From Ignavibacteriota bacterium (GTDB taxonomy: Bacteria; Bacteroidota; Ignavibacteria; UBA10030), in NCBI GenBank assembly GCA_963727825.1, contig CAVSHO010000011.1, positions 395,282 through 459,281 of the forward strand: a DNA stretch of 64,000 bases, read 5' to 3'. The notes under the pieces were generated by a model. The model did no database searches. It had not been told where the DNA came from and saw only the letters and a program-made list of their open reading frames with translations. The translations under genes were made by a program, and so were the position numbers. How positions within the stretch are numbered: the stretch's first letter is position 1; each line of letters starts with the position of its first letter. Shown piece after piece: positions 5,137 through 54,192 of this stretch.

Positions 5137-5391
5137 GTGTACTCCATCGTTTTCACATCTTCTGCGTCCAAGGATATTATTTCTCTTCCAATTATTGTTC
5201 AAAGAAGATGCGAAATCTTAATTGGTCGATTTACATACCACCCTAAACCAGATGGTTGTAAAAAATTAAAGGGGTTGGATAATACATGGAGAATCCGTAT
5301 TGGAAACTACAGAATTTTATACGGCATTGATGACATTTACAAGATACTAACGATTTACAGAATTCTTCACCGTAAAGAAGCATACAGATGA
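5137..5391 (+). CDS. relE: RelE/ParE family toxin
   Basis: [12 protein letters not shown]...CKKLKG...[12 protein letters not shown]...ILHRKEAYR; stop overlaps the alaS start (ATGA). Confidence 0.88.
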
Positions 5392-18479: not shown

Positions 18480-18875
18480 TTACTTATGAGTTCCAACGTT
18501 TTTAATCGGAGTTGCACAATACTTAGAAATGTCAGATAGCCAATAACCCGGATCACTTTGCCAGGGTTTGAGTTTCATCGCAAGTATTATTCGTTCTACT
18601 GCCAGGGCTTTACTTTTCTCTTCCAGGATAAGACTTTCCACGGCAAAGATTTTTCTTTTAACCGCCAGATCTTTACTTTTCTTTCCCAGGGTTGGACTTT
18701 CCGCGGCAAGAGCTGTTCTTTTCTCTGCCAGAGTTCGCCTTTTTTCCAATAGGATTAGACTTGCCGTGGCCATTGCCATTCTTCTCACTGACAGAGATTC
18801 ACTTTTCTCCACCTGAGCCTTTTTTTCCGGGAGTTGTTCAAGAGGTTGTATTATAGGTGCAGAAATAGAACGCAC
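18480..18875 (-). CDS. Heptad-repeat (coiled-coil) hypothetical protein or gene remnant
   Basis: 21-bp periodic repeats (LAEKRTA LAAESPT LGKKSKD LAVKRKI FAVESLI LEEKSKA LAVERII); GTG start lies inside a duplicated leader. Confidence 0.4.
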   Translation of the reverse strand: MRSISAPIIQPLEQLPEKKAQVEKSESLSVRRMAMATASLILLEKRRTLAEKRTALAAESPTLGKKSKDLAVKRKIFAVESLILEEKSKALAVERIILAMKLKPWQSDPGYWLSDISKYCATPIKNVGTHK

Positions 18876-19007
18876 AGGCGATGCTTTCTATTAGAAAAAA
18901 CAATTAATGGGGTTTTGATTAGAACAAAGATGAAAAATCAGTACGAAAAGCGCAATCACGCAAACGCGTGTTTTTTAAAATATGTAAAGATTACAAGTGA
19001 AAGGCTG
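18864..19007. repeat. Duplicated ~140-bp upstream/leader region, copy 1
   Basis: Aligns with 19691-19831 (aatagaaYgcacaggYgatgctttctatta ... gcaatcacgcaaaYgcgtgttttt ... aaatatgtaaagatta). Confidence 0.85.
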
Positions 19008-19087
19008 TGGAAATGGATTACAGAAGGAGGCGTTTGTTTTTGAGAATTTGGGAACGAGATGATTGAATATTTTGATGAAAATATATT

Positions 19088-19591
19088 CTAATTATAATTG
19101 ACCGTTACACTTAAACCGGAAGTATTTTTGTAAGTATCGGCTGCTGTAGATGCAGGTATATTCAATGTAGCGCCAATATTTACTGTCTGAGTGCCTGCAC
19201 TCAACTTACCTGTCGAAGCAGGATTACTAACAAATGCACCTACTGTCACACCATTAGTAGTACCATTAAGTACTATAGGTGAACTTGGTAACGATATAGT
19301 ATACGTGTAACTTCCTGAGCCTGTAACAGCAAAAGAAGCGGCTGTAACCGTTCCTGCGGAAGCAGGAAGTGTTACACCACCATTGGGTGTGCGTGTACCA
19401 TCAGTACTTAGAACGACTGTGCCTGATGCTGTTGTTGCAGCTATATTGCCAAAAACCATATCAACTGATTTAGTGATGCCTATAGGTGTTACAATAGTAA
19501 CCGCTATGTTGGCTGTTGCAATTGCTTGAGCAAAAACATTTGCCGGGAATCCGATCAGTAAGAGAGCAAAATATTTAGTTATGCTTTTCAT
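19088..19591 (-). CDS. DUF4402-like secreted beta-sandwich (fimbrial-subunit-like) protein
   Basis: Signal peptide, PIGITKSVDMVFG, GTVVLSTDGTR, AASFAVTG, C-terminal VTVNYN. Confidence 0.8.
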   Translation of the reverse strand: MKSITKYFALLLIGFPANVFAQAIATANIAVTIVTPIGITKSVDMVFGNIAATTASGTVVLSTDGTRTPNGGVTLPASAGTVTAASFAVTGSGSYTYTISLPSSPIVLNGTTNGVTVGAFVSNPASTGKLSAGTQTVNIGATLNIPASTAADTYKNTSGLSVTVNYN

Positions 19592-19690
19592 TTCGCGAAC
19601 CCATATCATTTAAATTTTATTAGAAAAGCCCGACTAACGTGTCAGAGAAAAATCTTTTTATTCTCGTGGATTTGTTCTAATAAGTGTTGT

Positions 19691-19831
19691 AATAGAATGC
19701 ACAGGTGATGCTTTCTATTAAAAAAAATCGAATAGGGTTTTGACTAGTAGGAAGATACAAAATCGGTATGAAAAATGCAATCACGCAAATGCGTGTTTTT
19801 AAAAATATGTAAAGATTATAAGGAAAAGCTG
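19691..19831. repeat. Duplicated ~140-bp upstream/leader region, copy 2
   Basis: Aligns with 18864-19007. Confidence 0.85.
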
Positions 19832-20044
19832 AAAAAAGAGATCATCGGAGATAGTCTACCTTTTACTTCCTTGTTAGTTGTGATGGTCGTGTTTTTACTT
19901 CTCTCCAGTTAATGCCGGAAAGAATCATTCCCTTGTAGTATCGCTAAGTATGAACTCGTTGACTTTCAAACGGAGAGCTTTCTTTATTCTGTTTATGCAA
20001 CAACACATTTTTATGTGTGTCAAGTTAAGTTTCTTGATTCATAA

Positions 20045-23000
20045 TCAGTCGTCCATGAAATCTCTTTTCTTTTCCCACTCCATTTGTCTTCTCAAGCTTG
20101 AAATATGTTTTTCAATCAACTGTTTGTGTTCAAGAAGATCAGACTTATTGAAAATTAACAAGAGAGATTCAAAATAGTCAATCTCCTCTTTAAGAACGGG
20201 GACATGGCTTCCACTCCATGACTTGATACTTGGTTCTAACGAAAGTTTCTCGAAATCCTTGAATCTTTTATTGAATGCAACAAAAAGAGTTATGTACCTT
20301 TTTCGTCTCTCCGGTTCAAATGAGGCAATTACAAGAAAGATCAATTTCATTACTGCAGAATTTTGATTTTGCTTTTCTATAAGGTCTCCAATGAATTTGT
20401 CCTGCCTTTCCTTTATCAACTCCATATCCCGTGCATCTTGTCGAAGTACAAAAAAAGTTTCTAGATACGAATCGAATATCATTTCCCTTCTTAGCTCAAT
20501 CGCAAGGACACAATCCACGATTCGAGTTATAACCTTTTCAAAGTCGTTTCGTCGCCACAAAAACGAATAATCATGTGAATCATCGTGTTTACTTAAACAT
20601 TCCTTTTTATTGTACATCCAGTGTATATAATCAATCATTATACTGGAGTCGACATCAAGAATCTTGTTGATTGTCGTCCCGTTATAATCTGCATCTGGGT
20701 CCACTTCAAGCACACAGAAGAAAGCCTCCTTTAACAGATCAAAGTGATCTTGATATATTTCAATAATTTTCTTGTTGACTTCTAAGTACGAATTAAAGAG
20801 AAGAGAGAGACAAAACCCGAATCGACGATCTTTTCTCGACTTACGAAGTACCACTCTCGTTATGCGGATAAACAAATGCTTATCAAATTCCCAATACTTG
20901 AGTAAGTAATCCAAGTGATGAGGTGGTTCATCTCGCATCGCTCTTTTGTATAATCGATAGACCTGTTTTGCCCTACTTCTTGTAACTTCGCTAGGAGGGA
21001 TCGTTTGGTAGTATGCAAACAACCACTTGCGTTGAGTTGAATATGGTACTTTTCGACGAATCCAGAGTACTAAAAGTAATGCAAATCTAACAACTGCATT
21101 TGCATTACTAATTGGTAATCTAAGAATAGCAAGGACACCGGTCGTATCAAGCACTTTGAAAAGTCTATCCACCAAAACAGGTGAATCCAGGGCGAAGGGG
21201 TCACCGTTTGTCAGGTAATATTGAATAACATTTTTATATAGTTCCAAATCACGCTCAGCAAAAGAAATGAGAACTTCGGTAACACCTTCTTTAAATTGGA
21301 ATTCTCTATTGGTCCCCTTAACTGTAGCCCATATTTGACTACAACTATCAAAGAATTGCTTATAATCGATCATGATAAATTTGCTAAAATGCTCAGCAAT
21401 TCGATGCAGTTTCAATTTCTTGTATTCTTCATATTCCAGATTTAGGTTTCTCATCTCGATATGATCGTCGAAGAGGATCTTAGTCAGTTCGTGAGTTTTA
21501 TTTGTGAATGTAGATCTCAGCTTCTGATCGAAGGACACTTTATGATTCTCAAAAAGATCAAGTAGATTGTGGACTAACACACAATCCAAATAGTTATCTG
21601 GGTTAAGTTTTGAGACCACAAATTGAATTATTTCAGTCGAATCCTTTTCGACAATCTCATCGACAGAAATGGAGTACCCCGAAGAGCTATAATGTTTGAG
21701 AGTAATAAGGACTTGAGCACGAAGTTCAGGAATGTTGTAAAGTTCGAATAAGTTTTTCCAAATTTCACATCTTAATTCATTGAGTGCAGGCGTTAGCGGT
21801 AGTTGAAAATCGATGATATTGACTGCGTAGCGATCTGTAGACTCTACTGTATGAAATCGTGTTTGAAGATAATTGGTATATAGGAGGAACTGTAGTTTCG
21901 TGAGTATTAAATCTGTGCTTTTATGTGTTCTCTCCCACAAAGTCTCTACGACGGTTCTCTGCATATAGAAATCACGTAAGTACGACTTTTGTTGAAATCC
22001 AAATGCCTCGGTTAATATGTAATATACTTTTGGCAGGTCAGCAGGACGTTTCTGAAGATAGTCGTAGATAAGAGCCAAGGCAACTTTTAGGTTTTCTTCG
22101 CCTGACTGGTTGAACTTTTTTAGAACACTTAATATTGAAGGCGAATGTATATTTGAGTCTGGCTTGATTTCGTCGTCAGATTGCGGTGTTGCGTCTGGCT
22201 CTAAGTTTGATATCGATTCTTTGATGCAAACAAGAACATCCGTTTCTTTTGCAAACCAGAAAGCCTCACAAAGAGATAGAATCAATTCAGTATTCCCGAC
22301 AGCATAAAAGTTGTCCCAAACGCGATCGATATCTTTTCGCACTTTGTTCATAAGTTGATCGCTATAGAATGCATTCAATACGGGATAGAAGGAGTCATAA
22401 AGACGTTCTTTGTGCTTAGGGAAGTAAGTTATTAAGAGGTCTGCGAAACTCAACGCCCTTTGTTTGAAGAAGCAGAGATAGAATATATACGTCGCAAGAA
22501 CTTGATCGGAGAAGCGAACAACTTCGTTCTCCCATAAGTCAAGAATCTCTGTTTCATGAAGTCTCACCGCATAGTTCCAAAAGGAGTCCTTAGAAAAACC
22601 AAATGAAGTTTCAATCGACTTCATCATTTCTTGATTGGTTTTATCAATAGATCGAAAGAAAGCCACCAATCCTGCTACGCCTACGATTGAACTGTCGCCA
22701 AGATCCTCGATGTCCTTTCGGATAGAACTGAAGTACTCGTCATAGAGACCAGAAACATCCGTGATGCTATCTAGCCTATTCTCATGACTGGCAACTCTGC
22801 CAGCCATAATTGCCAATCGTGGATTTCCTTTAGCTATATTAGCGATTCGATCAAGATATAGATGATTTTTGATGCCGCACTCATCTTCTACTAATTGTTT
22901 GATTTGATCCTTTTCAAAGTTAGGCAATTCTTTGTACTCGCTACAGCCGTAGACTTTAGAAGCATTTCTCACCTTATTTGCGGCATAATCACGTGTTGTC

Positions 23001-23875
23001 GCAATCAGTTTAATCCTTCTATTTTCGTTCTGCTGATGTAGTAATTGAAGTATATAGTCAAACTTATTAATGCGGTTTGCATCATCCACGAAGATTAGGT
23101 AGCATCCTGGTTCAGAGAAATGGACTTGAAGGTCGGTGAAGAGATCTGGGCCTCGATTGAAGATACAATACGCGTGGAACTCAGATTGTTCTTTTAGAAA
23201 CTCTCTACAACATTCGATTGCAAATCGGGATTTACCCACCCCTGCTTTGCCACCAATGATGACAAGATCACTCGATTTGAGGAGTTTAACTGCTTCTTTA
23301 AGCTCATTCTGCCGAAAATGGAAAGCAGTATCAAGAGGAGTTGCAAGAACGTTTTTGTTATAAGCTGAAACAAACTCATCAAGGTCTACAATCTGACCAG
23401 TGTCTACATCGATCTCAAGAAATTCTTTTGCAAGTCCAGGATACTTGAAAAGAATGTCATATGAGATGCGACTGGTTTCGAACAGATTGAGGTTGACTTG
23501 GTTCTTTTGACATTGTTCTCGTAGACTATCTATTTCCGATGTATTAAGTGGCGCTGTAAAGCAAAAGACTACTTCAGCTATCTTTGAGATGGAGATACCT
23601 GTTTTCGCATCATTAAAGCACTTTGTTAAATCGTTGTTTAATTTCTCGTAAAGATTGGTCTGTTGTGTTGTATGTTCAGCAAATATATACTTACCGTTCG
23701 GGAGGGATATTAATGTGTCCGGCGTACTTTTTCGAACCTTGTCCGCTCCGATAAAGGAACCGAGAGAATTTAACTGCTCGTACCCTTTTTTGTAAAGATA
23801 TGCGTCTGCGAACTTCTGGAAAGCTGCATCGCCTAACTCAAGTAACTTTTTTTGAATCTGGTTGAGTCTTGACAT
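20045..23875 (-). CDS. STAND-class P-loop NTPase with N-terminal PD-(D/E)xK-like domain; candidate anti-phage (Avs-like) protein
   Basis: Walker A GKAGVGKS, Walker B LIFVDDAN, ATTRDY, GNPRLA (GxP); N-terminal FQKFADAYL...TPD...AEHT; long helical C-terminus. Confidence 0.75.
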   Translation of the reverse strand: MSRLNQIQKKLLELGDAAFQKFADAYLYKKGYEQLNSLGSFIGADKVRKSTPDTLISLPNGKYIFAEHTTQQTNLYEKLNNDLTKCFNDAKTGISISKIAEVVFCFTAPLNTSEIDSLREQCQKNQVNLNLFETSRISYDILFKYPGLAKEFLEIDVDTGQIVDLDEFVSAYNKNVLATPLDTAFHFRQNELKEAVKLLKSSDLVIIGGKAGVGKSRFAIECCREFLKEQSEFHAYCIFNRGPDLFTDLQVHFSEPGCYLIFVDDANRINKFDYILQLLHQQNENRRIKLIATTRDYAANKVRNASKVYGCSEYKELPNFEKDQIKQLVEDECGIKNHLYLDRIANIAKGNPRLAIMAGRVASHENRLDSITDVSGLYDEYFSSIRKDIEDLGDSSIVGVAGLVAFFRSIDKTNQEMMKSIETSFGFSKDSFWNYAVRLHETEILDLWENEVVRFSDQVLATYIFYLCFFKQRALSFADLLITYFPKHKERLYDSFYPVLNAFYSDQLMNKVRKDIDRVWDNFYAVGNTELILSLCEAFWFAKETDVLVCIKESISNLEPDATPQSDDEIKPDSNIHSPSILSVLKKFNQSGEENLKVALALIYDYLQKRPADLPKVYYILTEAFGFQQKSYLRDFYMQRTVVETLWERTHKSTDLILTKLQFLLYTNYLQTRFHTVESTDRYAVNIIDFQLPLTPALNELRCEIWKNLFELYNIPELRAQVLITLKHYSSSGYSISVDEIVEKDSTEIIQFVVSKLNPDNYLDCVLVHNLLDLFENHKVSFDQKLRSTFTNKTHELTKILFDDHIEMRNLNLEYEEYKKLKLHRIAEHFSKFIMIDYKQFFDSCSQIWATVKGTNREFQFKEGVTEVLISFAERDLELYKNVIQYYLTNGDPFALDSPVLVDRLFKVLDTTGVLAILRLPISNANAVVRFALLLVLWIRRKVPYSTQRKWLFAYYQTIPPSEVTRSRAKQVYRLYKRAMRDEPPHHLDYLLKYWEFDKHLFIRITRVVLRKSRKDRRFGFCLSLLFNSYLEVNKKIIEIYQDHFDLLKEAFFCVLEVDPDADYNGTTINKILDVDSSIMIDYIHWMYNKKECLSKHDDSHDYSFLWRRNDFEKVITRIVDCVLAIELRREMIFDSYLETFFVLRQDARDMELIKERQDKFIGDLIEKQNQNSAVMKLIFLVIASFEPERRKRYITLFVAFNKRFKDFEKLSLEPSIKSWSGSHVPVLKEEIDYFESLLLIFNKSDLLEHKQLIEKHISSLRRQMEWEKKRDFMDD

Positions 23876-23929
23876 AATTCAATAATGGAGATTTAGTTTA
23901 TCCAACATAACGGTAAGGGAATGACACTT

Positions 23930-24246
23930 CCAACCAATCGTCTCATTTGGACGGATTCTAGCCCTGTATAAATATTTTTTTGGTACCAACGAATCTGCAT
24001 TCATCATACCAAACCTGTTTTGGGAAATTGAGCGTGAACTTTTGAGATATCCCTATATCTTTACATCTTGTTCAGAGGCAGAGTTGCGTAGTTTTTGTAA
24101 TCCTGCGAGACTCTAAAATAGAATCAAGCTTACGCTTGATACATTCTCAGGCCTCCGGCTGGTTTAATAGTACTTAGTTTTAAAGTTATACACAAGAATA
24201 AAACCCATTCACATTATCCAAATGGGCAGGCGCTGCAGTGTTGTGT
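23930..24246. repeat. Long fold-back intergenic element, copy A
   Basis: 37-bp core TTTGGTACCAACGAATCTGCATTCATCATACCAAACC (23979-24015) identical to copy C; GCCTCCGGC at 24151; CATTTGGA/TCCAAATG inverted ends. Confidence 0.85.
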
Positions 24247-24268
24247 GTATCTAGCGTTTGCGCTACTT

Positions 24269-25591
24269 TTACTCTTTTGGAATTCCTTTTTGTGTCACTA
24301 ACCTGTTCAACAATGCCGCGCAGTTGCCACTCTTATCGTGCTGCGAGACATACATTTGGAATTCATCATACGTGAGTATCTTTCCGAGGAAATCTCTGTA
24401 CAGGTCCTGCAAAAGAGCCTTCCACTGGTCATCGCCTAATTGAGTATGTAGCTTGCTGATAACAAGCGGGCCTTTGCCATAAAGGATCAGACCCTTTTCT
24501 TTAGTGTTCGGGTAATCGACATCAATAATTGGAACATCGTTTTCCTTCCCGGCAAACTTTTCATACTGTTTCACCGGTTCATGCAGCGCTTCATTGAATG
24601 CCTCTTCGCCCTTCGAGTGACGAACATACATAAGACGGAGATAATGCGGCAGAGAAATAGTAAGGAACCAGAAGCCGGGTTGATGGAACTTTGCGAAAAC
24701 ACCTGCACCTATCCACTGCTCCGCAATTGTGAGACGAAGACCATCAAAATCTCCCTTTCCCATTCCATTAAGCGAGGCTGAGCCGACCATTAACAGGCCG
24801 CTTGAAATATCAATCCCATCGAAATAGGGAACTTCAACCAGAGTCAGGCGTTCGTGAGGGTATTTTCCAATGACGTTTGTAAAAAAAGTGAATACATTTT
24901 TTGCTTCAGTCAAAATAGAATCGATAGAGATGGTATCGGTAGCCGAGGAGTAAATAACAATCTTCTTTCGCAGAACTTCACCGGAATCTTTCTTAAGCGA
25001 ACTTGATTTGAACACCACCAATGGCAACTTGAAGATAGGTATCCTGGTTTCCCAGACAAATTGAGAAGCGATGCCTGATTCTTTTATTTCAAGCAAATCG
25101 CCTGCCGAAAGGACAGTATAATCACGCGGGACTTCGCATCTCAGCCGCATTTTAGCTATCTGATCAGAAATGAGTGGATACCAGCGGCTTCCCCTGTCCA
25201 AGAGCAATAAGGAATCGCCGAGTGGGCTGATCGGGAAGGTGTATTTAAACTCAATCGTGAGTGTATCCGCCTGGCGCATTGTTAACGGAAAGTGCAACTG
25301 CAAAGTATCCCTGCCGACAAATTGAAACGGAATTTCTGACCAGCGGCCGTTTGTGAAAGACCGGACAGCCTGCAACCTGGAATCTGAGTTTAGCAATAAT
25401 ACTGACTGTGAGGTTGTATCGGTTTTTTGTATAAGACATGTCGCCGTTATATCGACCTTGTCATCATGTACACCAATTATAGCATCAATATCATACGAAA
25501 TGATATTGATTCCGTGACCTTGACTCATCGCAAATTGAGCTATAGAAGCAAGGAGTCCAAAGAGCATTAGTATGGTTCTATGATAATGCAT
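24269..25591 (-). CDS. M1 aminopeptidase-like secreted protein lacking the HEXXH zinc motif
   Basis: Signal peptide from ATG 25591; WYP, GKYP-ERL-LVE, AEQWIG, YGKGPLV; LTIAEQW replaces HExxHQW. Confidence 0.75.
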   Translation of the reverse strand: MHYHRTILMLFGLLASIAQFAMSQGHGINIISYDIDAIIGVHDDKVDITATCLIQKTDTTSQSVLLLNSDSRLQAVRSFTNGRWSEIPFQFVGRDTLQLHFPLTMRQADTLTIEFKYTFPISPLGDSLLLLDRGSRWYPLISDQIAKMRLRCEVPRDYTVLSAGDLLEIKESGIASQFVWETRIPIFKLPLVVFKSSSLKKDSGEVLRKKIVIYSSATDTISIDSILTEAKNVFTFFTNVIGKYPHERLTLVEVPYFDGIDISSGLLMVGSASLNGMGKGDFDGLRLTIAEQWIGAGVFAKFHQPGFWFLTISLPHYLRLMYVRHSKGEEAFNEALHEPVKQYEKFAGKENDVPIIDVDYPNTKEKGLILYGKGPLVISKLHTQLGDDQWKALLQDLYRDFLGKILTYDEFQMYVSQHDKSGNCAALLNRLVTQKGIPKE

Positions 25592-25806
25592 TACGTTTAT
25601 TGGGCAGACTCCATCCTTACGCAAATATTTCTTTGGTACCCACGAATCTGCATCTTACCAAACCTGTTTTGGAAAGATTGTTTTTGTTAACTGAGGACTT
25701 CCAATCATGCAGTGTCAGTGCCTCCGGCGTCTGCATGCTGGCAGTATGGTAATGAGTTTTCCATTTATCCGCAAGTAATTGGAAGCAAGATAATGTTGCC
25801 AATATT
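25587..25806. repeat. Long fold-back intergenic element, copy B
   Basis: TTTGGTACCCACGAATCTGCAT-CTTACCAAACCTGTTTTGG; GCCTCCGGC at 25720; TATTGG/CCAATA inverted ends. Confidence 0.8.
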
Positions 25807-25827
25807 TAAAAAATACTTCATTTTTCA

Positions 25828-25856
25828 TGTAACTTTTCCTTATATCGAAGATAGTA
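25828..25856 (+). promoter_or_regulatory. Possible autoregulatory ECF promoter (near-leaderless)
   Basis: TGTAAC (-35-like) at 25828-25833 about 35 bp before the sigma ATG; -10 not well defined. Confidence 0.3.
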
Positions 25857-25866
25857 TAGTATAGAT

Positions 25867-26376
25867 ATGAGCATGAATCTTCTCACGTTCAATCAGTTGT
25901 ATCACACATATGCAAAGGATGTGCACCGGTTTGCGTTCTGGCTGTGCGGCGATACGGATGAGGCGAACGATATTACGCTGGAAACGTTCGAGCGTGCATG
26001 GCTTACCGATTCCGAAATACGCACCGAGACCGTGAAAGCTTACCTATTCACGATTGCGCGGAATCGCTTTCTGTATAAACAGAAGCGGCATAAACGCCAC
26101 ACATCGCTTAACGAGGCAATGCCCGATAACGCAATGGCGTTAGAAACAAGAACAGAGCTTCAATCGGAATTGCAATTTACCTTAGAGGCAATGCAGCAAT
26201 TGCCGGAGATCGATCGGGCAGTATTGATTCTGCGAGCTGAAGAGGGATTATCATACGAAGAGATTGCACGCACAACCGGCTTAACAGTTGTCGCAGCAAA
26301 AGTAAAAGTGTTTCGCGCGCGCGCAAAATTAGTTTCTCTATTATCTAAAACCACAACAAGGAATTTCCATGAATGA
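25867..26376 (+). CDS. ECF RNA polymerase sigma factor
   Basis: Region 2 (EANDITLETFERAW...AYLFTIARN) and region 4 (LPEIDRAVLILR-EEGLSYEEIA...KVKVFRAR). Confidence 0.93.
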   Translation: MSMNLLTFNQLYHTYAKDVHRFAFWLCGDTDEANDITLETFERAWLTDSEIRTETVKAYLFTIARNRFLYKQKRHKRHTSLNEAMPDNAMALETRTELQSELQFTLEAMQQLPEIDRAVLILRAEEGLSYEEIARTTGLTVVAAKVKVFRARAKLVSLLSKTTTRNFHE

Positions 26377-27286
26377 TGATTTGATTACACAAGAAGTGCC
26401 TCAATCTTTTTTTCATCGCGTCTTCATTGGCAAGCAGGGAATTCGTGCCGGTTGGAGCATTGGCATCTTCTTTCTTCTTATGGGGTTGTTTACTGCAGCC
26501 TTCTTTATGCCGACCATAACTCTTCTTAAACATTACAATATATCACCAGAGGATATACAGCCTTTGTCGGCTTGCGCTACCGAGTTTGCCGCATTCCTCG
26601 GGCTGCTGACCGCCACAATGGTCATGTCCCGCATCGAACATAAGCCAATTATTTTTTACGGATTGGAAGGAACGCGTCGCTTTGTGCGATTTCTCTATGG
26701 ATTATTCTGCGGCGTGATCGCTCTTTCAATCCTGGTAGGCGTGTTGAATCTCAGCGGTTTGCTTATCTTCGATGGCCAGCAATTGTTCGGTAAAGCAGCA
26801 GCCGTATACGCAATAGGTTGGGGCGTTGGATTCTTTTTAGTCGGCCTCTATGAAGAATACTTAATGCGCGGATACATGATGGTTACATTAACGCGCGGCA
26901 TTGGATTCTGGTGGAGCGCCCTTGTTTTTTCCATTCTCTTCGGGTGCATTCACCTTCAAAATCCCGGAGAATCATCGGTGGGAATAATTTCCGCTGCACT
27001 CGTCGGTTTTGTTTTCTGCATCAGTCTCTGGTACTTAAAAAACCTCTGGTGGGCAATAGGTTTCCATGCCTCATGGGATTGGGCGGAATCTTATCTTTGG
27101 GGAACGGCGGACAGCGGAAGAGTTGTACAGGGACATCTGTTTGCCGTACATCCGCAGGGAAATATTCTTTTGAGCGGCGGCGCAACAGGTCCGGAAGGAA
27201 GTTTGCTGATTATACCACTGCTTCTCATTATAGCCGCATTGATGTGGCTGGCATGGGGACGGAATAAAAATGCCGCCGACAAATAA
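26369..27286 (+). CDS. CPBP (CAAX/Abi) family intramembrane metalloprotease
   Basis: EEYLMRG, FGCIH, AIGFHASWD, GPEGS motifs. Confidence 0.92.
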   Translation: MNDDLITQEVPQSFFHRVFIGKQGIRAGWSIGIFFLLMGLFTAAFFMPTITLLKHYNISPEDIQPLSACATEFAAFLGLLTATMVMSRIEHKPIIFYGLEGTRRFVRFLYGLFCGVIALSILVGVLNLSGLLIFDGQQLFGKAAAVYAIGWGVGFFLVGLYEEYLMRGYMMVTLTRGIGFWWSALVFSILFGCIHLQNPGESSVGIISAALVGFVFCISLWYLKNLWWAIGFHASWDWAESYLWGTADSGRVVQGHLFAVHPQGNILLSGGATGPEGSLLIIPLLLIIAALMWLAWGRNKNAADK

Positions 27287-27295
27287 TTTCATAAT

Positions 27296-27391
27296 GCGCG
27301 CAATTGACGTAACGATGGCTGTGAACGTAAAAGCGTTTCGTAAACGAGTAAAATTAGTTTCTTTATTTTCGATACAAGGAGAAGTTGTATG
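27296..27391 (+). pseudogene. Degenerate duplicate of the ECF sigma 3' end
   Basis: gtaaaagcgtttcgtaaacgagtaaaattagtttctttattttc...acaagga...atg matches gtaaaagtgtttcgcgcgcgcgcaaaattagtttctctattatc...acaagga...atg at 26266-26371. Confidence 0.75.
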
Positions 27392-27802
27392 AAGATAACT
27401 GAAGAAGTGATGAACGATCTGCTGCCGCTGTATTTTGCAACCGAATGCAGCAGCGATACAAAGAAGTTGGTGGAAGAATATTTTCAGGAACATCCGGAGT
27501 TTGAACAACAATCACGACAGAATTATAAAGATCCGTTTATCGAAAAAGATGTTCCTTCGCTGACGCCTACTGAAGAAGTGAAAGCATTGAAATCCACGCG
27601 GCGATGGATAAAGGTGCGGTCGTTCGTGCTTGCTTTCGCCATTTTCTTTTCGCTGTGCCCGTTTTCATATTATCATACCGACAACGGGTCAGCTTTTCTA
27701 TTCCTTGAACATCCATCTGAGGCGTTGATCTATGTACCGTTTGCAGTGGTATTCTGGTGTATTTATTTCGGCATGAAGCGAAGACTGCGAACGGGACAAT
27801 AG
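27389..27802 (+). CDS. Putative membrane anti-sigma factor (zf-HC2-like N-terminus)
   Basis: VMNDLLPLY...S-DTKKLVEEY N-terminus plus two TM helices. Confidence 0.75.
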   Translation: MKITEEVMNDLLPLYFATECSSDTKKLVEEYFQEHPEFEQQSRQNYKDPFIEKDVPSLTPTEEVKALKSTRRWIKVRSFVLAFAIFFSLCPFSYYHTDNGSAFLFLEHPSEALIYVPFAVVFWCIYFGMKRRLRTGQ

Positions 27803-27902
27803 TTTAGGATTTTTTAAATAAGATTTTTTTTAAACGAAATTGCTTTAACTAAGTCGATCTTATCCCTGCTGCCTAGCAGATGGCAACCAATGTCTGTAAT
27901 AG

Positions 27903-28120
27903 TGCATTGCATTTATTGGACACACTCTAGCCCTGCAAAAATGGTTCTTTGGTACCAACGAATCTGCATTCATCATACCAAACCAGTTCTAGAAAATTAA
28001 ACTACGAGTTGCTAAGACATCCCTGCTATTATGCCTCCGGCTGGTGTTATGGTACTTGGTTTTACAGTTATCTGCAAGAGTAAAATCTATTTGCCAGATC
28101 CCAATGAGCTAGCGGCGGCA
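27903..28120. repeat. Long fold-back intergenic element, copy C
   Basis: 37-bp core at 27948-27984 identical to copy A; GCCTCCGGCTGG at 28033; ATTGG/CCAAT inverted ends. Confidence 0.85.
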
Positions 28121-28339
28121 AGCCATCAATAGTGAGCTGGTTCAAGGATTCATTATAATAGATATTGCATTTCCGAAATATTCAAAGTACACTCATTCAG
28201 TTTCAACGATGTGCTCTACCTCAGCTCTATCGTTGTAATGGATGGAACACACCAAAAAAAACGTAACCAATTCCAGAGCGGTAAAAAAAACCTTCATTAA
28301 TACAATATCATCTACCACATATCAAGGAGATTGTCAATT

Positions 28340-28999
28340 ATGAATGCATCACTCAAATTGATTCTCTGGCTGCTTGCCGGCATTCTTTTACCGTTTGCTG
28401 CATTTTATTTATTGGGCAGCACGAATGATCACTGGACGTCTCTCAATATTGCAGGCGTTGTCACATTGATATTCCTTTTTGTTTTTCTCTGTTATTGTAT
28501 GCGCTCCCCTTTCTCCATTAAGACCCGCATTACAACCTGGACTATATTTGTTCTTGTCGCTGCTGTCGGTGCGATTGGTTGGAGAGGAATGGAAGGTTTA
28601 TCGAAGTACCAGCGCAGGACATTAATGGAAATACATACGATGATCACCAAAGGTATCCTTCAAGAAGAACTCTATACACCACTGCACAAAACGCTCGCTG
28701 CTTATTATGGTCAACCAGGAAAGAAGAAAGAGACACTCGGGCGAGTATTTCAACGATTGTATCCTAATGGAAAAGTTGGTGAAAATATTCATAATGTTCA
28801 TCAACAAGATCCAAAGGGAGACGATAGTCTTCGCGTTGTTGTCGCTGCTATTTCTGACAATGAAATTGGGCTTGTTGGGTACCACTATTATTCCAGAGGC
28901 ATAAATAAAGATTTTAAAAATTACAACGGCCGCTTCGGTTTTGTACAATCTATAGCAGTGATGACGGAGAAGGGAGTGCGCTATGAATCAGAAAACTGA
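28340..28999 (+). CDS. Hypothetical membrane protein (3 TM plus soluble C-domain)
   Basis: AAGGAGA SD before ATG 28340; overlaps the next gene. Confidence 0.75.
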   Translation: MNASLKLILWLLAGILLPFAAFYLLGSTNDHWTSLNIAGVVTLIFLFVFLCYCMRSPFSIKTRITTWTIFVLVAAVGAIGWRGMEGLSKYQRRTLMEIHTMITKGILQEELYTPLHKTLAAYYGQPGKKKETLGRVFQRLYPNGKVGENIHNVHQQDPKGDDSLRVVVAAISDNEIGLVGYHYYSRGINKDFKNYNGRFGFVQSIAVMTEKGVRYESEN

Positions 29000-29753
29000 T
29001 CCAAACAATGCATCCACATCGGAGTTCTCTCCTAAGTTTTTACGCTGGATCTCAATTACCACTCTTGGCGCACTGTTAATCGTTCTTGTTCCAGTACATC
29101 GGATTTATCCATATTCATTTAATATATTCCACAATCCTGCATTTCAAGCCATGGGAATAACGATCTCGATGGGGCTTAGCGAGTTTTCAGGTCATGTTCC
29201 TTGCATCAGCCCAAAAGAGCTTTTACACTTGATCACTGCCCTTGTACTCCTTTATATCATCGGACCGGTTCTCTGTTTGTACAGCTGGCGGATACTGGAA
29301 CAGAAAAAAGCTGCGGGTACCCCCATTACAAAGATCTTCAACATCTGGCCACTGTTGTTCATCATCGGTGGAGCCTTAATCTTTAGAATGGTTTTTTTTG
29401 AAGTAATTATGACTGCGAGCAATCGGATAGTCTCCGCACATTTGTACAAAGCTCAAGACGTGCAGAGAACCAAAGACCTCCTCATCTACGACCTTAATCA
29501 AGCTGCCTTTGAAGCGTACGATTACTGGATTCTTCCAAAATCACTTAGCGGCGGCAACGGGTCATATGAAGGATTTTGCCTCTCTCGACAGAGAGCAAAA
29601 AATGACAACGGAGAGATATTAATTGTCGAAGCGCGCTCCCAGACGATTACATTTCTTGCTGTTTCCTCGAAGAATCTTGTTAACACGATTATGGTCTCTG
29701 TCGATTCCATCGGACGAGCATCCCGGTGGACATATTCCGGAGACTATAAATAA
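28983..29753 (+). CDS. Hypothetical membrane protein (3 TM plus C-domain with AYDYWILPKSLSGGNGSY motif)
   Basis: 256-aa ORF in an operon-like arrangement. Confidence 0.75.
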   Translation: MNQKTDPNNASTSEFSPKFLRWISITTLGALLIVLVPVHRIYPYSFNIFHNPAFQAMGITISMGLSEFSGHVPCISPKELLHLITALVLLYIIGPVLCLYSWRILEQKKAAGTPITKIFNIWPLLFIIGGALIFRMVFFEVIMTASNRIVSAHLYKAQDVQRTKDLLIYDLNQAAFEAYDYWILPKSLSGGNGSYEGFCLSRQRAKNDNGEILIVEARSQTITFLAVSSKNLVNTIMVSVDSIGRASRWTYSGDYK

Positions 29754-30714: not shown

Positions 30715-33015
30715 ATGCCTGACATAACAAACCCAGAAAGCCAAAGACACCTTTCTGTCATTATGTTTTCCGACATCGTCGGCTATAGCAAGATGATGCA
30801 GGAGGATGAAGATCTCACCATGAAGCTTCTTGCCCGTCACATTCAAATCGTGAGAGATGTGCTCGTCAAACACGATGGCAAGGAAATCAAGATGATAGGT
30901 GATGCCTTCCTTGTGAGTTTTACAACAGTTGCTAATGCTGTTAGGTGTGCTATTGATATACAGGAATGTTTCGCTAAATATAACGAGAGCACTGCGGAGA
31001 AAGAAAAGATACTTCTTCGTATTGGTATTCATATGGGCGATATTATCGTCAAAGATGACGATGTGTTTGGCGATGGTGTAAACATCGCTTCTCGTATTGA
31101 ACCGTTGGCTGAACCCGGGGGCATTTGTATTTCACAGGAGGTGTATAATTTAGTAAGGCACAAATTAGACCTGCAAGTAGTCTCGCTCGGGCCAAAAGAG
31201 CTCAAGAATATCAAAGAGAAAATTGAGATTTATGAAATTCTTGTCGGTTCCATCACATCCGATGCACACAAAGCGAAGGAGAGGAAAAAGAAAAGAAGAA
31301 ATTGGATATATGCTTTAGCAGGATTGTTTTTGGCAACCATTGTTATTTTCATTGCAATTACGCTGTTCAACAAGTCTTCAACCCCAATGGTGACACGGAT
31401 ATTGAAAACAGGGGGCAATAATGTTAATGATCCAAACATTTCGCCTGACGGAAACTGGATTGTTTACGTTGCCCTCGATTCCAGAATGCGTCAAAACTTG
31501 TATGTTGTTCCCGCTTCAGGCGGTGAGCCAAGGAAAATTACAAACGACACAACGTCAGTTTATTACAAGTCTCCCTGCTTCTCGCCTGATGCCAGCCAGA
31601 TTATTTATTTTTATTCCTTCCCTTCCGCCGAGAATTATAAGAACGAAATAGACATCATCCCAACTCTGGGCGGAACATCTCACAAACTGGTCGGTGATGG
31701 TGACCTTCCAGTGTGGTCACCAGACGGAAAACATATTGCCTTCTACAGTACCGATGCAAAGGAGCTCTCCATTGTTAACCCTGACGGAACGGAAAGGAAA
31801 AAAGTTATTGAGTTCGCAGAAACCGGGTTCATTAATATCGCATGGTCTCCTGATTCAAAGCGTCTTGCTTTCCTGAGAAATTTTGAAACCAATACAACCA
31901 GTCATTACACGGAAATATTCTCTCGCACATTGGATGATAGCACCGAACATCAGATAACGTTTGACAAAAAGATCATTGATGATTTTTGCTGGACTTCAAC
32001 TGGAGAGATCGTCTTCAATTCAAACCGCGGCGGGGGTGTCGGCTTATGGGTTATACCGGAGGAGGGTGGAACACCGAAGCAGCTCACACTTGGTGCTGGT
32101 GCCGACAGGTTCCCACGCATATCAAAGGATGCTAAACGCCTTGTCTATTTGAATGAATCTAAACCATCTAATCTCTGGAAAATCGACCTTCAGACAAAGG
32201 AACTTCAGCAATTGACATTCGAGGTAGATGCGCAGATTTGGAGTGTTGCATATTCTCCGGATGGAAGCAAACTCATCTACGGGTTGGAAAACGAATTCGA
32301 ATCCTCACAAGATGGATTTGTGATATGCAATAAGGATGGAGGTGGGCCAACCAAAATTACACCGAAAATCGAGAAATACAAATTATCAACGGCCTTCGTG
32401 ATACGTTGGTCCGCAGATATGAAATCGGTTCTTTTCAATGGCTCTCGAAGTGATACAATAAGAAAAAATCCGGATTCCATAGTTGTTATGAGCAGTTTCT
32501 TTGAGTATGAGCTTGCCACAAATATAACTCGGAAATTAGGAGATGGCAGATTATTTGACATCTCAAGGGACGGAAAGTATCTCTTATATGGACCTGATCT
32601 AAATTTTCCCTATCGAGCAGTTCTTGCGCTTAAATCTGCACCCGCCAAGATGATAAAGGAAATCGCTATAAACGGAGTAATACCGCACTTTTCGTGGGAC
32701 TCAAAGAATGCAATAATTCAAGACTCAACGGGTGTATGGTTCGTACCTGTGGATATGGGTAGAAGTAGACAATTTATTAAAACCCCAAAATCTTTTCGGC
32801 TCCAGAATTCCATGCCTGACGATAAATCAATTCTCGGATTCATTGTGGTTCCAACTTTCCAAAAGGCTACTTTGATAAAACTGTATTGTGCAAACGGCAA
32901 GTTTGAAGAGTTAGCACATGGGGTCTTCCCAGTAGTTTCTCCTGATGGCAATACAATGGTTTTCATAAGAGGGGAATCCAAGAACAGGGCCATTGTGATA
33001 GATAATTTCCGCTGA
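30715..33015 (+). CDS. Class III adenylate cyclase with TM helix and extracytoplasmic TolB/PD40 beta-propeller
   Basis: FSDIVGYS, KMIGDAF, RIGIHMGD, DVFGDGVNIASR; repeated SPDG motifs after the TM helix. Confidence 0.9.
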   Translation: MPDITNPESQRHLSVIMFSDIVGYSKMMQEDEDLTMKLLARHIQIVRDVLVKHDGKEIKMIGDAFLVSFTTVANAVRCAIDIQECFAKYNESTAEKEKILLRIGIHMGDIIVKDDDVFGDGVNIASRIEPLAEPGGICISQEVYNLVRHKLDLQVVSLGPKELKNIKEKIEIYEILVGSITSDAHKAKERKKKRRNWIYALAGLFLATIVIFIAITLFNKSSTPMVTRILKTGGNNVNDPNISPDGNWIVYVALDSRMRQNLYVVPASGGEPRKITNDTTSVYYKSPCFSPDASQIIYFYSFPSAENYKNEIDIIPTLGGTSHKLVGDGDLPVWSPDGKHIAFYSTDAKELSIVNPDGTERKKVIEFAETGFINIAWSPDSKRLAFLRNFETNTTSHYTEIFSRTLDDSTEHQITFDKKIIDDFCWTSTGEIVFNSNRGGGVGLWVIPEEGGTPKQLTLGAGADRFPRISKDAKRLVYLNESKPSNLWKIDLQTKELQQLTFEVDAQIWSVAYSPDGSKLIYGLENEFESSQDGFVICNKDGGGPTKITPKIEKYKLSTAFVIRWSADMKSVLFNGSRSDTIRKNPDSIVVMSSFFEYELATNITRKLGDGRLFDISRDGKYLLYGPDLNFPYRAVLALKSAPAKMIKEIAINGVIPHFSWDSKNAIIQDSTGVWFVPVDMGRSRQFIKTPKSFRLQNSMPDDKSILGFIVVPTFQKATLIKLYCANGKFEELAHGVFPVVSPDGNTMVFIRGESKNRAIVIDNFR

Positions 33016-33422: not shown

Positions 33423-35548
33423 ATGAAAAACATTCTACGATTTCTCTTTGTGGTGTTTTGCCTCTTCACCGCTACGAATCCCTTGCATGCACAATGGACT
33501 CAGACCAATGGACCCTACGGTGGTTATATTTCGTGTTTTGTCGTCTCCGGCACGAATCTCTTTGCTGGCACTGAAGGCGGTGGCCCTTGGCAAGGTGGCG
33601 CCGGCGTTTTTCTTTCCACGAACAACGGTACTAGTTGGACTCCAGTCAATACGGGCTTGACGAACACTGCTGTGTCTTCTCTGGCTTTAAGCGGCACGAA
33701 TCTCTTTGCCGGGACATATGGCGGCGGCGTATTTCTATCAACCAACAACGGTACAAGTTGGACTCAAGTCAATTCAGGATTGACTAACACTACTGTCTTG
33801 TCTCTTGCTATCTCCGGCACAAGTCTTTTTGCAGGTACTGCTGGCGGCGAATTTCTATCAACCAACAGCGGCACAAGTTGGGCTGCTGTTGCCGTCAATA
33901 CCGGTTTAACGAACATTTCTAATGCTCTTGTCATTTCGGGCACGAATCTTTTTGCAGGTACTGATAGCGGCGTCTTTCTATCAACCAACAATGGTACAAG
34001 CTGGACTGCTGTCAATACCGGCTTGACGAACACTTCAGTCCAGGCTCTTACCATCTCCGGGACAAATCTCTTTGCCGGGACTTATGGCGGCGGCATATTT
34101 CTATCAACCAACAACGGCACAAGTTGGACTGTAGTCAATACTGGCTTGACGGGCAATGCTCTTTATGTCGAAGCTTTTGCCATCTCCGGCACGAATCTTT
34201 TCGCGGGGACCAGTAGTGGCGTCTTTCTTTCCACGAACAACGGCACTAGTTGGACTGCCGTCAATACCGGCTTGATGAATACTTATGTCCGAGCTTTTGC
34301 CGCCTCCGGCACGAATCTCTTTGCAGGGACTGATGGCGGTGGTGTCTTTCTTTCCACCAACAACGGCACAAGCTGGACTGCAGTCAATACCGGCTTGACG
34401 AATACTTCTGTATATACTCTTGCCGTCTCCGGCACAAATCTCTTTGCAGGGACTGAGAACGGTGGCGTCTTTCTTTCTACCAACAACGGTACAAGCTGGT
34501 CTACAGTCAATACTGGGTTAACGAACACTACTGTCTATTCTCTTGCTGTCTCCGGCACGAATCTCTTTGCAGGGACCAATGGTGGCGTTTTTCTATCGAC
34601 GAACAATGGCATAAGTTGGATTCAAGTCAATACAGGCTTGACGAATACTTCTGTATATACTCTTGCCGTCTCCGGCACGAATCTCTTTGCCGGGACTCTT
34701 GGCGGTGGCGTCTTTCTATCCACCAACAACGGCACAAGCTGGACTGCAGTCAATACAGGCTTGACGAACACTACGGTTCAGGCTCTTGCCGTCTCCGGCA
34801 CGAATCTCTTTGCTGGCACTCAGAACGGTGGCGTCTTTCTTTCCACCAACAACGGCACAAATTGGACTGTCGTCAATACGGGCTTGACGAGTACTTATGT
34901 CCAGGCTCTTGCCGTCTCTGGCACGAATCTCTTTGCCGGGACCCAAAGCAATGTCTTTCTCTCCACCAATAATGGCACAAGCTGGACTGTAGTCAAAACC
35001 GGCTCGTGTACACTTATTTTAATACTTTCGTCGTCACAGGTACGAATCTTTTTGCCGGGACTGAGAACGGTGGTGTCTTTCTTTCCACCAACAAAGGCAC
35101 AAGCTGGAGTGAAGTCGATACTGGTTTGACGAAAGTTTTTATCGGTACTCTTGCCGTCTCTGGCACAAATCTCTTTGTTGGGACTTATTTAGGCGGCGTT
35201 TGGAGGCGACCGTTGTCAGAGATGATCACAGCAGTAGAAAGTCCCTTGACTGATTTGCCGACGCATTTCAATCTCGACCAGAACTTTCCGAACCCGTTCA
35301 ATCCGTCAACGACTATTTCCTTTAGCCTTCCATCTCAATCGTTTGTATCACTGAAAGTTTTTGATGCTTTAGGAAGAGAAGTGGCAACGGTTGTCTCTGA
35401 AGAAATGTCGGCAGGAAGTTACAAACGTCAATGGAACGCCGCGACTATGTCGAGCGGAATTTATTTTTATCGTCTACAAGCCCGCCAAACATCCGGCGGG
35501 CAAGCTGGCTCATTTACAGAGACTAAAAAACTTGTTTTAATGAAGTGA
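33423..35548 (+). CDS. T9SS-secreted BNR/Asp-box repeat protein, 14 blades (two 7-blade propellers); one frameshift near 35005
   Basis: Signal peptide; 14 xLFAGT-type repeats with STNNGTSW Asp-boxes; CTD QNFPNPFNPSTTI...TKKLVLMK in ORF 35006-35548. Confidence 0.88.
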
Positions 35549-39703: not shown

Positions 39704-39852
39704 ACTTGAGATTCAAATAAAATAAATGTAGGATTCTGGTGGTCAAATTGAGAGGTGCTCGACCGATGCACCATCGTTTACCGGGGAACACTTCAAGATA
39801 TTTTTATATTACTAAAGTCGTTTATTAAATTCCTAATGTGGGAGTTATGACT

Positions 39853-53479: not shown

Positions 53480-53946
53480 TTGCCAGTAATTCCTTTAATC
53501 GTTCCCATTGATTGACAGACAGGATTTGTTTTTCCTTCAAATATATTTGCAGGTGCACAAATCGCAAGTCAGCCCGCATTTTGCCGATTCGCTCGAGTTT
53601 ATCCCGCAGCGTTTTCTCGTTTAGAGTACCTGATTCAAAAAGTTTGTTCAATTCTTCCTCTGTCTCAACAATCTCCTGCCCTTTTACAGTCGCTGAAATC
53701 GGTAGATTCGTTAACATCTCGTTGATTTTTCTCAGCTGGTCTTTTGTTAATCCAAGCTGATCTTTGAACGAAATGATCTTTTGCGGGGCAGGAAAACCAT
53801 TTTTCTCTGCTACTAATGTTTGTCCGGTTGCTTCGCCACTTAATAATATGATCTTTATCCGGTGGAATAGTGACTTGAGCGTTTACCACCGCATCTATAA
53901 CAAGCGAAAATAAAAATATTAGATGACCGATCTTCAGTGTTTTCAT
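53466..53946 (-). CDS. Spy/CpxP-like periplasmic helical protein, frameshifted
   Basis: Signal peptide in 53665-53946; LRFVHL...ILSVNQWERL in 53466-53717. Confidence 0.55.
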
Positions 53947-54046
53947 AAAATCTTTCCATATAACTATTCAATTAAGTTATCATAAGAAATATTTTTTGAA
54001 CTAGTCAATATGTTTTTTGATAATGCAATTTTCAACTATAGGTTTT

Positions 54047-54125
54047 CCTCTCATCTTAGGGGAGGACTAAGGTGGGGTCATTTCTTTTTTTGACCTCACT
54101 CCGACCCTCTCCTATGAGGAGAGGG
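54047..54125. repeat. REP-like inverted pair
   Basis: CCTCTCATCTTAGGGGAGG...GGTGGGGTCA / TGACCTCACT...CCCTCTCCTATGAGGAGAGGG. Confidence 0.7.
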
Positions 54126-54192
54126 AATTATTCCGCTCTTTACAAAATAAATATTAAGTAGCTACCTTTTTTCGCCAATATGAAAATCCAGA

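Follow-up and report, generated by a model that had tools for sequence, protein, structure and literature searches.

What are the three long, foldable sequences that stand between unrelated genes in a 64-kb stretch of an Ignavibacteriota genome (contig CAVSHO010000011.1, positions 395,282 to 459,281 of the forward strand, "the window" below)? A first-pass annotation, made from the sequence letters, named them copies A, B and C and suggested unusually long attC-like recombination sites of an integrase-less cassette array, a miniature inverted-repeat transposable element (MITE), or a family of non-coding RNAs. Any answer has to account for the repeat family and its boundaries, for its hairpin and complementary arms, for its place before gene starts and the gene-start remnant that it contains, and for the mosaic relations among its copies. 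The answer preferred here, which is tentative and is held with somewhat less than even confidence, is that the copies are a lineage-specific non-coding repeat of ~180-275 bp: a propagated promoter and 5' leader module of the gene for a 440-aa secreted protein, whose direct repeats would also permit recombinational gene shuffling. If this is right, the locus is a clear case of a native promoter-leader being reused to express acquired genes, defence genes included, and of long direct repeats that make a chromosomal region a shuffling ground with no dedicated enzyme. It would also be a warning that an array of structured repeats among unrelated genes may look like an integron.

The repeat family in the window and its relatives

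A repeat search of the window yields a three-member family of 77-nt repeats at 23924-24000, 25577-25653 and 27893-27969, together with longer repeat pairs shared by A and C (83 nt at 86% and 82 nt at 76%). The 22-nt core has three matches at no more than three mismatches where 0.00 are expected from 100 shuffles, which is far beyond chance, and the three same-strand copies of the first-pass annotation are thus real. The nhmmer envelopes are 23937-24205 for A, 25590-25784 for B and 27906-28087 for C; a profile built from all copies finds no fourth copy in the window at E<=10, and the window copies are therefore confined to 4.2 kb. The sequence details that had been quoted for them are present as described, including the 37-nt run identical in A and C, the GCCTCCGGC block, the arms of A (ATTCT at 23955 with AGAAT at 24195, TGTATAA at 23965 with TTATACA at 24186) and those of C (ACTCT at 27924 with AGAGT at 28077, TGCA at 27934 and 28073). 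For the TTGG/CCAA inverted ends no significance could be established: they are 4-mers, and in the relatives with B-type ends (L001b, L001c and L009, introduced below) the 3' CCAA falls outside the conserved unit. Exact occurrences of a 10-bp palindrome, TTGGTACCAA, are confined to the copies.

Relatives were sought by scanning the contigs of a genome collection with one 20-base gapped exact pattern, which gave nine loci. Six of these (L002-L006 and L008) are chance matches with no similarity beyond the pattern, and the three genuine ones, L001, L007 and L009, lie in two related Bacteroidota metagenome-assembled genomes (MAGs) of soil bacteria. The window is matched in syntenic order by L007, from MAG SPRUCE 379, at 92.4% over 25170-27966 and at 87.5% over 28046-29665. 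The other two belong to MAG SPRUCE 123: L009 has an extracytoplasmic function (ECF) sigma factor unit which is syntenic with that of the window at 87.7%, with one copy before it, and L001 has three copies (a, b and c) inside 4.5 kb. Over the window and its relatives together, nhmmer recovers eight full copies and two halves of one disrupted ortholog of C; five of the full copies and the disrupted one lie outside the window, in the two related MAGs. Within every locus the copies share one orientation (n=3 in the window, n=3 in L001).

The genes between the copies are unrelated, as the first-pass annotation had it, and the variable flanks that it proposed to look for are found: gene content differs between the window and SPRUCE 123, and is kept between the window and SPRUCE 379 except inside C. 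On the minus strand the array reads C, ECF unit, B, 440-aa gene, A, STAND gene in the window, and c, PKD gene, b, 144-aa gene, a, Cas12f gene with CRISPR array in L001. Copy A and L001b are 88% identical over 250 nt, which is about the level of orthologous DNA (87.7%), yet their flanking genes are unrelated. In L007 the ortholog of C has had ~85 nt of its middle exchanged for 1075 nt (1.1 kb), with loss of the GCCTCCGGC block and of the 5' arm of the hairpin; this event is a replacement in mid-element, not an insertion at a fixed end. The new segment contains two hairpin repeats and, in minus orientation, a gene for a 272-aa class D beta-lactamase-like protein, whose NF012161 score of 235.6 bits is just below the cut-off of 250 and which matches Pfam Transpeptidase at 9.9e-30. 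This open reading frame (ORF), in place of the C-ortholog centre, belongs to L007 1622-2693, and the two hairpin repeats upstream of it are GC-rich. Copy A has no blastn match, in the mode for distant similarity, among 72,556 plasmid and 50,697 phage records, and no description of the element was met in the literature on related systems, a search that was not aimed at this sequence.

Conservation is distributed very unevenly along the copies. The 35-nt hairpin is identical at 35 of 35 positions in A, C, L001b and L009, which come from two genomes whose orthologous DNA is ~88% identical, and at 28-30 of 35 in the remaining copies, while the arm and tail segments beside it have 50-90% identity. 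An insert of ~90 nt is found in A, L001b and L009 alone, and a short GCC-GGA-GGC hairpin follows the -10-like motif described below on the minus strand. The L009 copy joins B-like ends (tail 21/25, arm 10/11) to an A-like middle (17/23, against 5/23 for B) with the long insert, and the copies are therefore mosaics. Their outer ends are not sharply defined but ragged.

The gene-start remnant and the genes that follow the copies

The minus-strand end of B reads ATG CAT TAT CAT AGA, which is the start of the 440-aa gene (N-terminus MHYHR); the claim that B supplies the ATG of this gene is correct, the codon lying inside B on the minus strand. The 440-aa protein has 253 homologues at E<=1e-10, and seven of the 17 closest (P0002-P0018) begin MH-x-x-R and continue with the same signal peptide, so that the start encoded by B is native. 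At the same place C has ATG CAC TAT TAC AGA (MHYYR) and L001b has ATG CAT TGT TGC AGA (MHCCR); in A and L001c the stretch carries a 4-nt deletion, and in L009 and the L007 ortholog of C the ATG is lost. The unit thus spans the region from the 5' arm of the closing stem to ~15-18 nt inside the 440-aa gene, and for this reason it is read as the upstream region of that gene, copied elsewhere; the remnant in the other copies points to such copying.

Apart from this end, the copies are non-coding. They have no conserved reading frame, the frames being broken by stops and a 4-nt indel, and two translated frames of copy A share words with no protein among 5.8 billion. Nor is a small ORF that begins with ATGATG in the hairpin accepted as real: a deletion of 4 nt puts B and its L007 ortholog in a different frame, and the substitutions show no preference for silent sites. 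The possibility that the copies match a decayed protein gene, which the first-pass annotation had set against its own proposal, holds for the minus-strand end, a decaying fragment of the first 5-6 codons, and fails for the non-coding remainder. A protein gene or pseudogene was rejected for the copies as a whole, given the broken frames and the lack of homologues, with the last 15-18 nt alone being a gene-start fragment.

At the homologous place in eight of nine element 5' parts, a sigma-70-like motif TTGNNN-N17-TANNNT occurs, identified as a consensus match. Motifs of this type are mildly enriched upstream of window genes (14 observed, 7.7 expected); the copies contain no TAnnTTTG of the Bacteroides type, and upstream of window genes that motif is not enriched (two in 7200 nt). 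On the minus strand a co-oriented gene starts 0-116 nt past the tail at six of seven distinct loci (A, B, L001a, L001b, L001c and L009), and on the plus strand four of the seven have a co-oriented gene within ~200 nt. Similar upstream sequence thus stands before six different, non-homologous downstream genes.

The mechanism that these observations suggest may be set out as follows. The upstream region of the 440-aa gene would have been copied in front of other, mostly accessory, genes. Read along the minus strand, the full unit consists of a terminator-like hairpin (in some copies), TTGNNN-N17-TANNNT, the GCC-GGA-GGC hairpin, an optional 90-nt insert (in three copies), the 35-nt hairpin, a 3' arm that pairs back to the -35 region, and a tail that takes in the 440-aa gene's first 5-6 codons. 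It would supply transcription and leader functions to whichever gene lies downstream, and the conserved hairpin may be a binding or regulatory site. The genes so served would be those for the STAND NTPase, the 440-aa protein, a TPR-PIN protein, a 144-aa protein, a PKD protein, and the Cas12f-like protein with its CRISPR array. With at least 200 bp of direct repeat in each copy, homologous recombination of the ordinary kind, either as unequal crossing-over between copies or as Campbell-type insertion of one-copy circles, is the presumed means by which genes would be inserted, deleted and swapped, and the result would be cassette-like arrays formed without a dedicated recombinase.

Unrelated genes with similar promoter regions before them have been described in prokaryotes, in PMC3575422 under the name of "mobile promoters". 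These are highly similar upstream regions before non-homologous genes, within and between related genomes, which is the situation found here. The present element differs in being long (180-275 bp), in having a conserved hairpin and a pairing closing stem, in including the first codons of its source gene, and in forming co-oriented local arrays.

Folding of the copies and the weight of the evidence

Two structural features of the copies, the hairpin and a closing stem, are moderately supported. RNAalifold retains the hairpin on both strands, accompanied on the plus strand by small local pairs and on the minus strand by a closing stem of 8 bp, which encloses 150-240 nt. In the minus-strand alignment 90.9% of 176 cells pair, compared with 36-48% when the partners are slid. 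Across the eight copies, four of the eight closing-stem pairs have changed on both sides; the pair count is reached by 5 of 500 shuffles and the covariation score by 9 of 500, while the number of pair types is reached by 184 of 500. The claim that the outer arms covary is therefore upheld as regards these both-side changes, with evidence that is no more than moderate, because the sample is small and the copies are related. The 8-bp stem of A contains six substitutions, all of which keep the pairing; the closing stems of L001a and L001b are broken. Between two arm segments A and C have a one-sided bulge of 5 nt (GGGCU, minus strand), where pairing in the other copies is unbroken. In the hairpin, no pair has changed on both sides. 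Non-Watson-Crick cells in the two supported helices comprise 28 G.U and 7 A.C when read on the minus strand.

The same strand is favoured by stability. The A-type hairpin as minus-strand RNA has a folding energy of -12.9 kcal/mol (z -3.26, with 1 of 200 shuffles as good), which makes it about twice as stable as the plus-strand RNA at -6.1 kcal/mol (z -1.65); the B-type hairpin is of low stability on either strand, and DNA parameters give the same order as RNA. Folds of whole copies on the plus strand are no better than shuffles (z -1.19, -0.07 and +0.81); of the minus-strand folds, that of A alone beats them (z -2.77, 0 of 200 as good, with -0.99 for B and +0.73 for C). A brute-force search for covarying helices on both strands returned nothing but noise in this AT-rich sequence. 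A second long-range helix, CCAGCC/GGCTGG, was discarded: with the closing stem it would make a pseudoknot, all three window copies have mismatches in it, and the strand that it favours is the other one.

These results bear directly on the possibility that the copies are a structured RNA in their own right, either a riboswitch-like leader sensor or a family of small trans-acting RNAs. A closing stem with compensatory changes that encloses a highly conserved interior, a bias in G.U pairs that indicates one strand, an optional internal domain of the kind typical of structured RNAs, and the minus-strand fold of A all fit such an RNA. It is nevertheless rather improbable. Rfam 15 gives no match in the window at the gathering threshold and, at E<=10 in 23800-28300, two weak matches that both lie outside the copies, and in L001, L007 and L009 it gives two weak unrelated matches. 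Five of the six whole-element folds are like those of shuffles, only the two helices are retained by RNAalifold (the hairpin without both-side changes), the downstream genes have no common metabolic theme, and orthologous copies evolve as fast as their flanks. These findings do not support the non-coding RNA family of the first pass as one with an elaborate fold.

It is also possible, if unlikely, that the copies are functionless leftovers: local duplications of the 5' region of the 440-aa gene whose gene bodies were then lost or replaced, with an apparent covariation that stems from shared ancestry or from template-switch correction, a mechanism that acts between inverted arms. The gene-start remnants are indeed decaying in the copies, the broken stems of L001a and L001b and the disruption of the C ortholog in L007 without visible consequence are what would be expected of leftovers, and orthologous copies are conserved no better than their flanks. 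What such leftovers do not explain is why the hairpin is the same, base for base, in four copies of two genomes whose orthologous DNA is ~88% identical, when the segments next to it have 50-90% identity, nor why the six substitutions in the 8-bp stem of A all preserve pairing.

Several points weigh against a propagated promoter-leader module as well. The promoter of the copies is a prediction from a consensus match, and a transcript that starts after the -10-like hexamer would leave the 5' arm of the closing stem outside the RNA and the covarying stem unexplained; the -35-like hexamer coincides with that arm, and the two are hard to reconcile as features acting in one RNA. B, the copy that does stand before the 440-aa gene, is the most divergent copy, with a hairpin of -6.4 kcal/mol that 49 of 200 shuffles equal. 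It is 89.6% identical to its L007 ortholog, the flanks being 91.5-94.9% identical, so B is no better conserved than they are. C is well preserved yet has no downstream gene. Orientation is informative at four loci alone, those between tandem genes, and a fit at three of four is not significant. The clustering of three copies in 4.2 kb of the window and of three in 4.5 kb of L001, all in one orientation within each locus, is a pattern that a cassette system would give as well. Finally, the family is known from three genomes, by way of a contig scan that required an exact 20-base pattern.

Cassettes, mobile elements and the surrounding genes

An integron-like cassette array would consist of long recombination sites folded on the minus strand, with the recombinase encoded elsewhere and the genes between the copies as mobile cassettes. 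The general architecture is of this kind, in that co-oriented repeats part unrelated genes whose content varies between related genomes, the copies being in direct orientation per locus whatever the gene orientation; the closing stem stays paired while its sequence varies, and the contents, which include defence-type genes and the class D beta-lactamase-like gene at the C site of L007, are typical of cassettes. In the part of PMC4889954 that defines them, attC sites have R and L boxes, an AAC/GTT triplet, an unpaired central spacer, extrahelical bases and a variable terminal structure of 20-100 nt. Clusters of attC sites lacking integron-integrases (CALIN), as characterized in the same part of PMC4889954, resemble the present arrays in their co-oriented structured repeats between unrelated, partly defence, genes, in outer-arm pairing that is kept despite varying sequence, and in the lack of an integrase nearby.

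The differences from attC sites as defined there are considerable. The elements described here have neither the triplet nor R and L boxes, are two to four times longer, with a conserved interior, are ragged-edged, and are tied to the start of the downstream gene rather than to the end of the upstream one. The AAC/GTT pair is absent on either strand, the outer arms reading ACTCT/AGAGT, ATTCT/AGAAT and CTTGCG/CGCAAG, and the enclosed 150-240 nt contain the 35-nt block identical in four copies, unlike a variable terminal structure. The "attC-like" strings CGTAATGCA and GTTATGT have no complementary R'' partner. In Pfam searches of the 50 window ORFs no recombinase of any kind was found, as the first-pass annotation had stated, and no transposase either; its suggestion that a recombinase might lie beside other copies led nowhere, the 13 ORFs of the relative loci containing no Phage_integrase or other recombinase, and an IntI-type tyrosine recombinase is accordingly lacking from both sets. 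The mosaic copies, their ragged outer boundaries, one of which is inside a gene start, and the replacement of ~85 nt in mid-element in L007 likewise speak against it. On this evidence the integron-like array is quite improbable, and attC-like sites are not supported.

A further parallel, within the same phylum in the wide sense, is offered by the rAID-1 arrays of Bacteroidales, which the portion of 10.1101/471110 that describes them calls reminiscent of integrons. As described there, they share with the present locus the arrangement of accessory genes in arrays with repetitive intergenic sequences, which lends some support to a cassette array; they differ in having a conserved recombinase of the XerD family and immunity genes, none of which is recognised here, a comparison made by description and not by motif. 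It is similarly improbable that the copies are cassette joints of a type other than integrons, in which circular gene-plus-element molecules would enter and leave via 200-bp direct repeats. The recombination would be that of the host, or else the work of an unlinked enzyme for which the folded minus strand is the substrate, and a gene once captured would gain a promoter and leader. Such joints, if real, would assemble Ignavibacteria-like defence islands with STAND, PIN-TPR, minimal Cas12f-CRISPR and class D beta-lactamase-like genes, and a cassette reading would mean a new gene-capture platform in a poorly studied soil lineage.

The remaining proposal, a non-autonomous transposable element that is MITE-like or derived from IS200/IS605, with a transposase acting in trans on the hairpin as its binding site, is very unlikely. 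It would account for several similar copies in differing gene contexts, for the conserved imperfect hairpin and the inverted arms, for length classes that differ by an internal 90-nt segment, and for the TnpB-family gene that adjoins one copy. The inverted arms are, however, internal rather than terminal, with a tail of 35-50 nt beyond the 3' arm that is a gene-start fragment; no target-site duplication is seen by inspection of the boundaries; and instead of being dispersed the copies form co-oriented clusters, the remaining 60 kb of the window containing none. No transposase was found among the 50 window ORFs or the scanned ORFs of the relative loci, nor any autonomous relative, and blastn gave no plasmid or phage match. 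The TnpB-family protein precedes a CRISPR array and is for that reason taken as a Cas12f-like effector, not as part of an insertion sequence. The MITE of the first-pass annotation is therefore not upheld. REP/REPIN, ERIC and Correia elements are also non-coding, hairpin-forming and multi-copy, and they are co-transcribed with neighbouring genes or regulate them; they differ from the element here in being shorter, dispersed over the genome and found in either orientation, and REPINs depend on a RAYT transposase.

The window comes from a genome of the FCB group, with 41.5% G+C and type IX secretion system sorting domains; the features of the copies and of the genes beside them are collected in Table 1. 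The named homologues of the 440-aa gene are from Ignavibacteria or Ignavibacteriaceae. The label "peptidase-like" that this gene had been given has no Pfam, NCBIfam or PDB sequence support, its sole basis being that the protein is a language-model look-alike of M1-peptidase-like clusters. The STAND-type NTPase has no PADLOC match. In the relatives, the L009 copy precedes the gene for a 930-aa TPR protein with a PIN-TPR-GreABC match (E 1.7e-05), L001b that for the 144-aa protein, L001c that for a 983-aa PKD protein, and L001a that for a 482-aa TnpB/Cas12f-like protein.

Table 1. Features of the three copies and of the adjoining genes (positions are those of the window)
Feature	Position	Strand	Remarks
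Copy A, long form	23925..24246	-	Repeat search, nhmmer; 88% identity over 250 nt to L001b, in another gene context
Order within copy A		-	Terminator-like hairpin, closing-stem 5' arm, 90-nt insert, core hairpin, closing-stem 3' arm, tail
Core hairpin of A	23979..24013	-	35/35 identical in A, C, L001b, L009
Closing-stem (P1) 5' arm of A	24189..24196	-	Overlaps -35-like TTGTGT
Closing-stem (P1) 3' arm of A	23963..23970	-	
-10-like TACTAT of A	24167..24172	-	17 nt after TTGTGT; consensus match, putative function
Optional ~90-nt insert of A	24049..24150	-	Terminator-like hairpin 24140-24123, then TCTATTTTAG
Terminator-like hairpin and T-run	24203..24227	-	Directly past stop of 440-aa gene; unit common to A and C
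Copy B, short form, 4-nt hairpin deletion	25574..25784	-	Tail holds start codon of 440-aa gene, 25591-25589
Copy C, short form, A-type ends	27893..28125	-	No co-oriented downstream gene on minus strand
440-aa secreted protein ("gene451")	24269..25591	-	Conserved in Ignavibacteria-like genomes
1276-aa STAND-type NTPase, downstream of A	20045..23875	-	nSTAND3, E 3.9e-08 (Pfam)
Start of STAND gene		-	62 nt beyond copy A on minus strand
ECF sigma factor, CPBP/Rce1-like protease, 137-aa membrane protein	25867..27802	+	Between B and C; opposite to other array genes

The 482-aa protein scores 9.2e-112 on the PADLOC Cas12f model and 178 bits on NCBIfam guided_TnpB. Its gene (L001 2821-4269, minus strand) is followed after ~255 nt by a CRISPR array at 2077-2565, with 35-nt repeats, a period of 65 and 7.6 copies; a 127-aa ORF at L001 2246-2629 is a false ORF over this array, and no cas1 or cas2 is present in the 10-kb locus. 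A role of L001a as the trans-activating CRISPR RNA of the Cas12f-like locus was considered and rejected, the best duplexes with the repeat having -16.5 or -15.1 kcal/mol where the shuffled mean is -18.4 (sd 2.8).

Within the ECF unit, the last 47 nt of the sigma gene (26299-26345) are repeated at 79% just before the 137-aa gene (27324-27370), and the CPBP/Rce1-like gene therefore looks inserted between the sigma gene and that of the presumed anti-sigma factor. L009 has the same arrangement of ECF and CPBP genes with the sigma-end repeat. A second, shorter repeat family, the GC-rich hairpin GGGGCGAGGTCACCT..., occurs on both sides of the ECF unit of SPRUCE 123 (L009 3803-3830 and 5914-5945). 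Hairpins of another repeat type, GTCATTCC...GGAATC, are found at L001 5230-5400, in the stretch that separates copy b from the PKD gene, and at L007 ~1690-1720, in the insert. L001 920-1620 has a similarity of 71-78% to a repetitive small gene of the window and its flanks (18528-19925; tandem units of 63 nt lie at 18601-18733). This similarity, on the same side of both arrays, could mark one orthologous array site but is too weak and too repetitive to be taken as evidence of it.

Elsewhere in the window, two large proteins with nucleotide cyclase domains (30715-33015 and 39838-42672) suggest a neighbourhood rich in signalling or defence genes; the former has weak matches to PADLOC PycC, the best at 2.5e-11, and the latter a fused AAA_16/STAND-like ATPase. 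Alanyl-tRNA synthetase (5388-8182) is divided among three ORFs (5388-6059, 6013-6543 and 6992-8182) with an overlap and a gap of 450 nt, which could be due to frameshifts, to assembly errors or to a pseudogene. The large chain of carbamoyl-phosphate synthase (51656-55665) is likewise found as two ORFs with a gap of ~700 nt, and a 568-aa BNR/sortilin-like ORF contains 13 tandem units of 123 nt (33596-35185).

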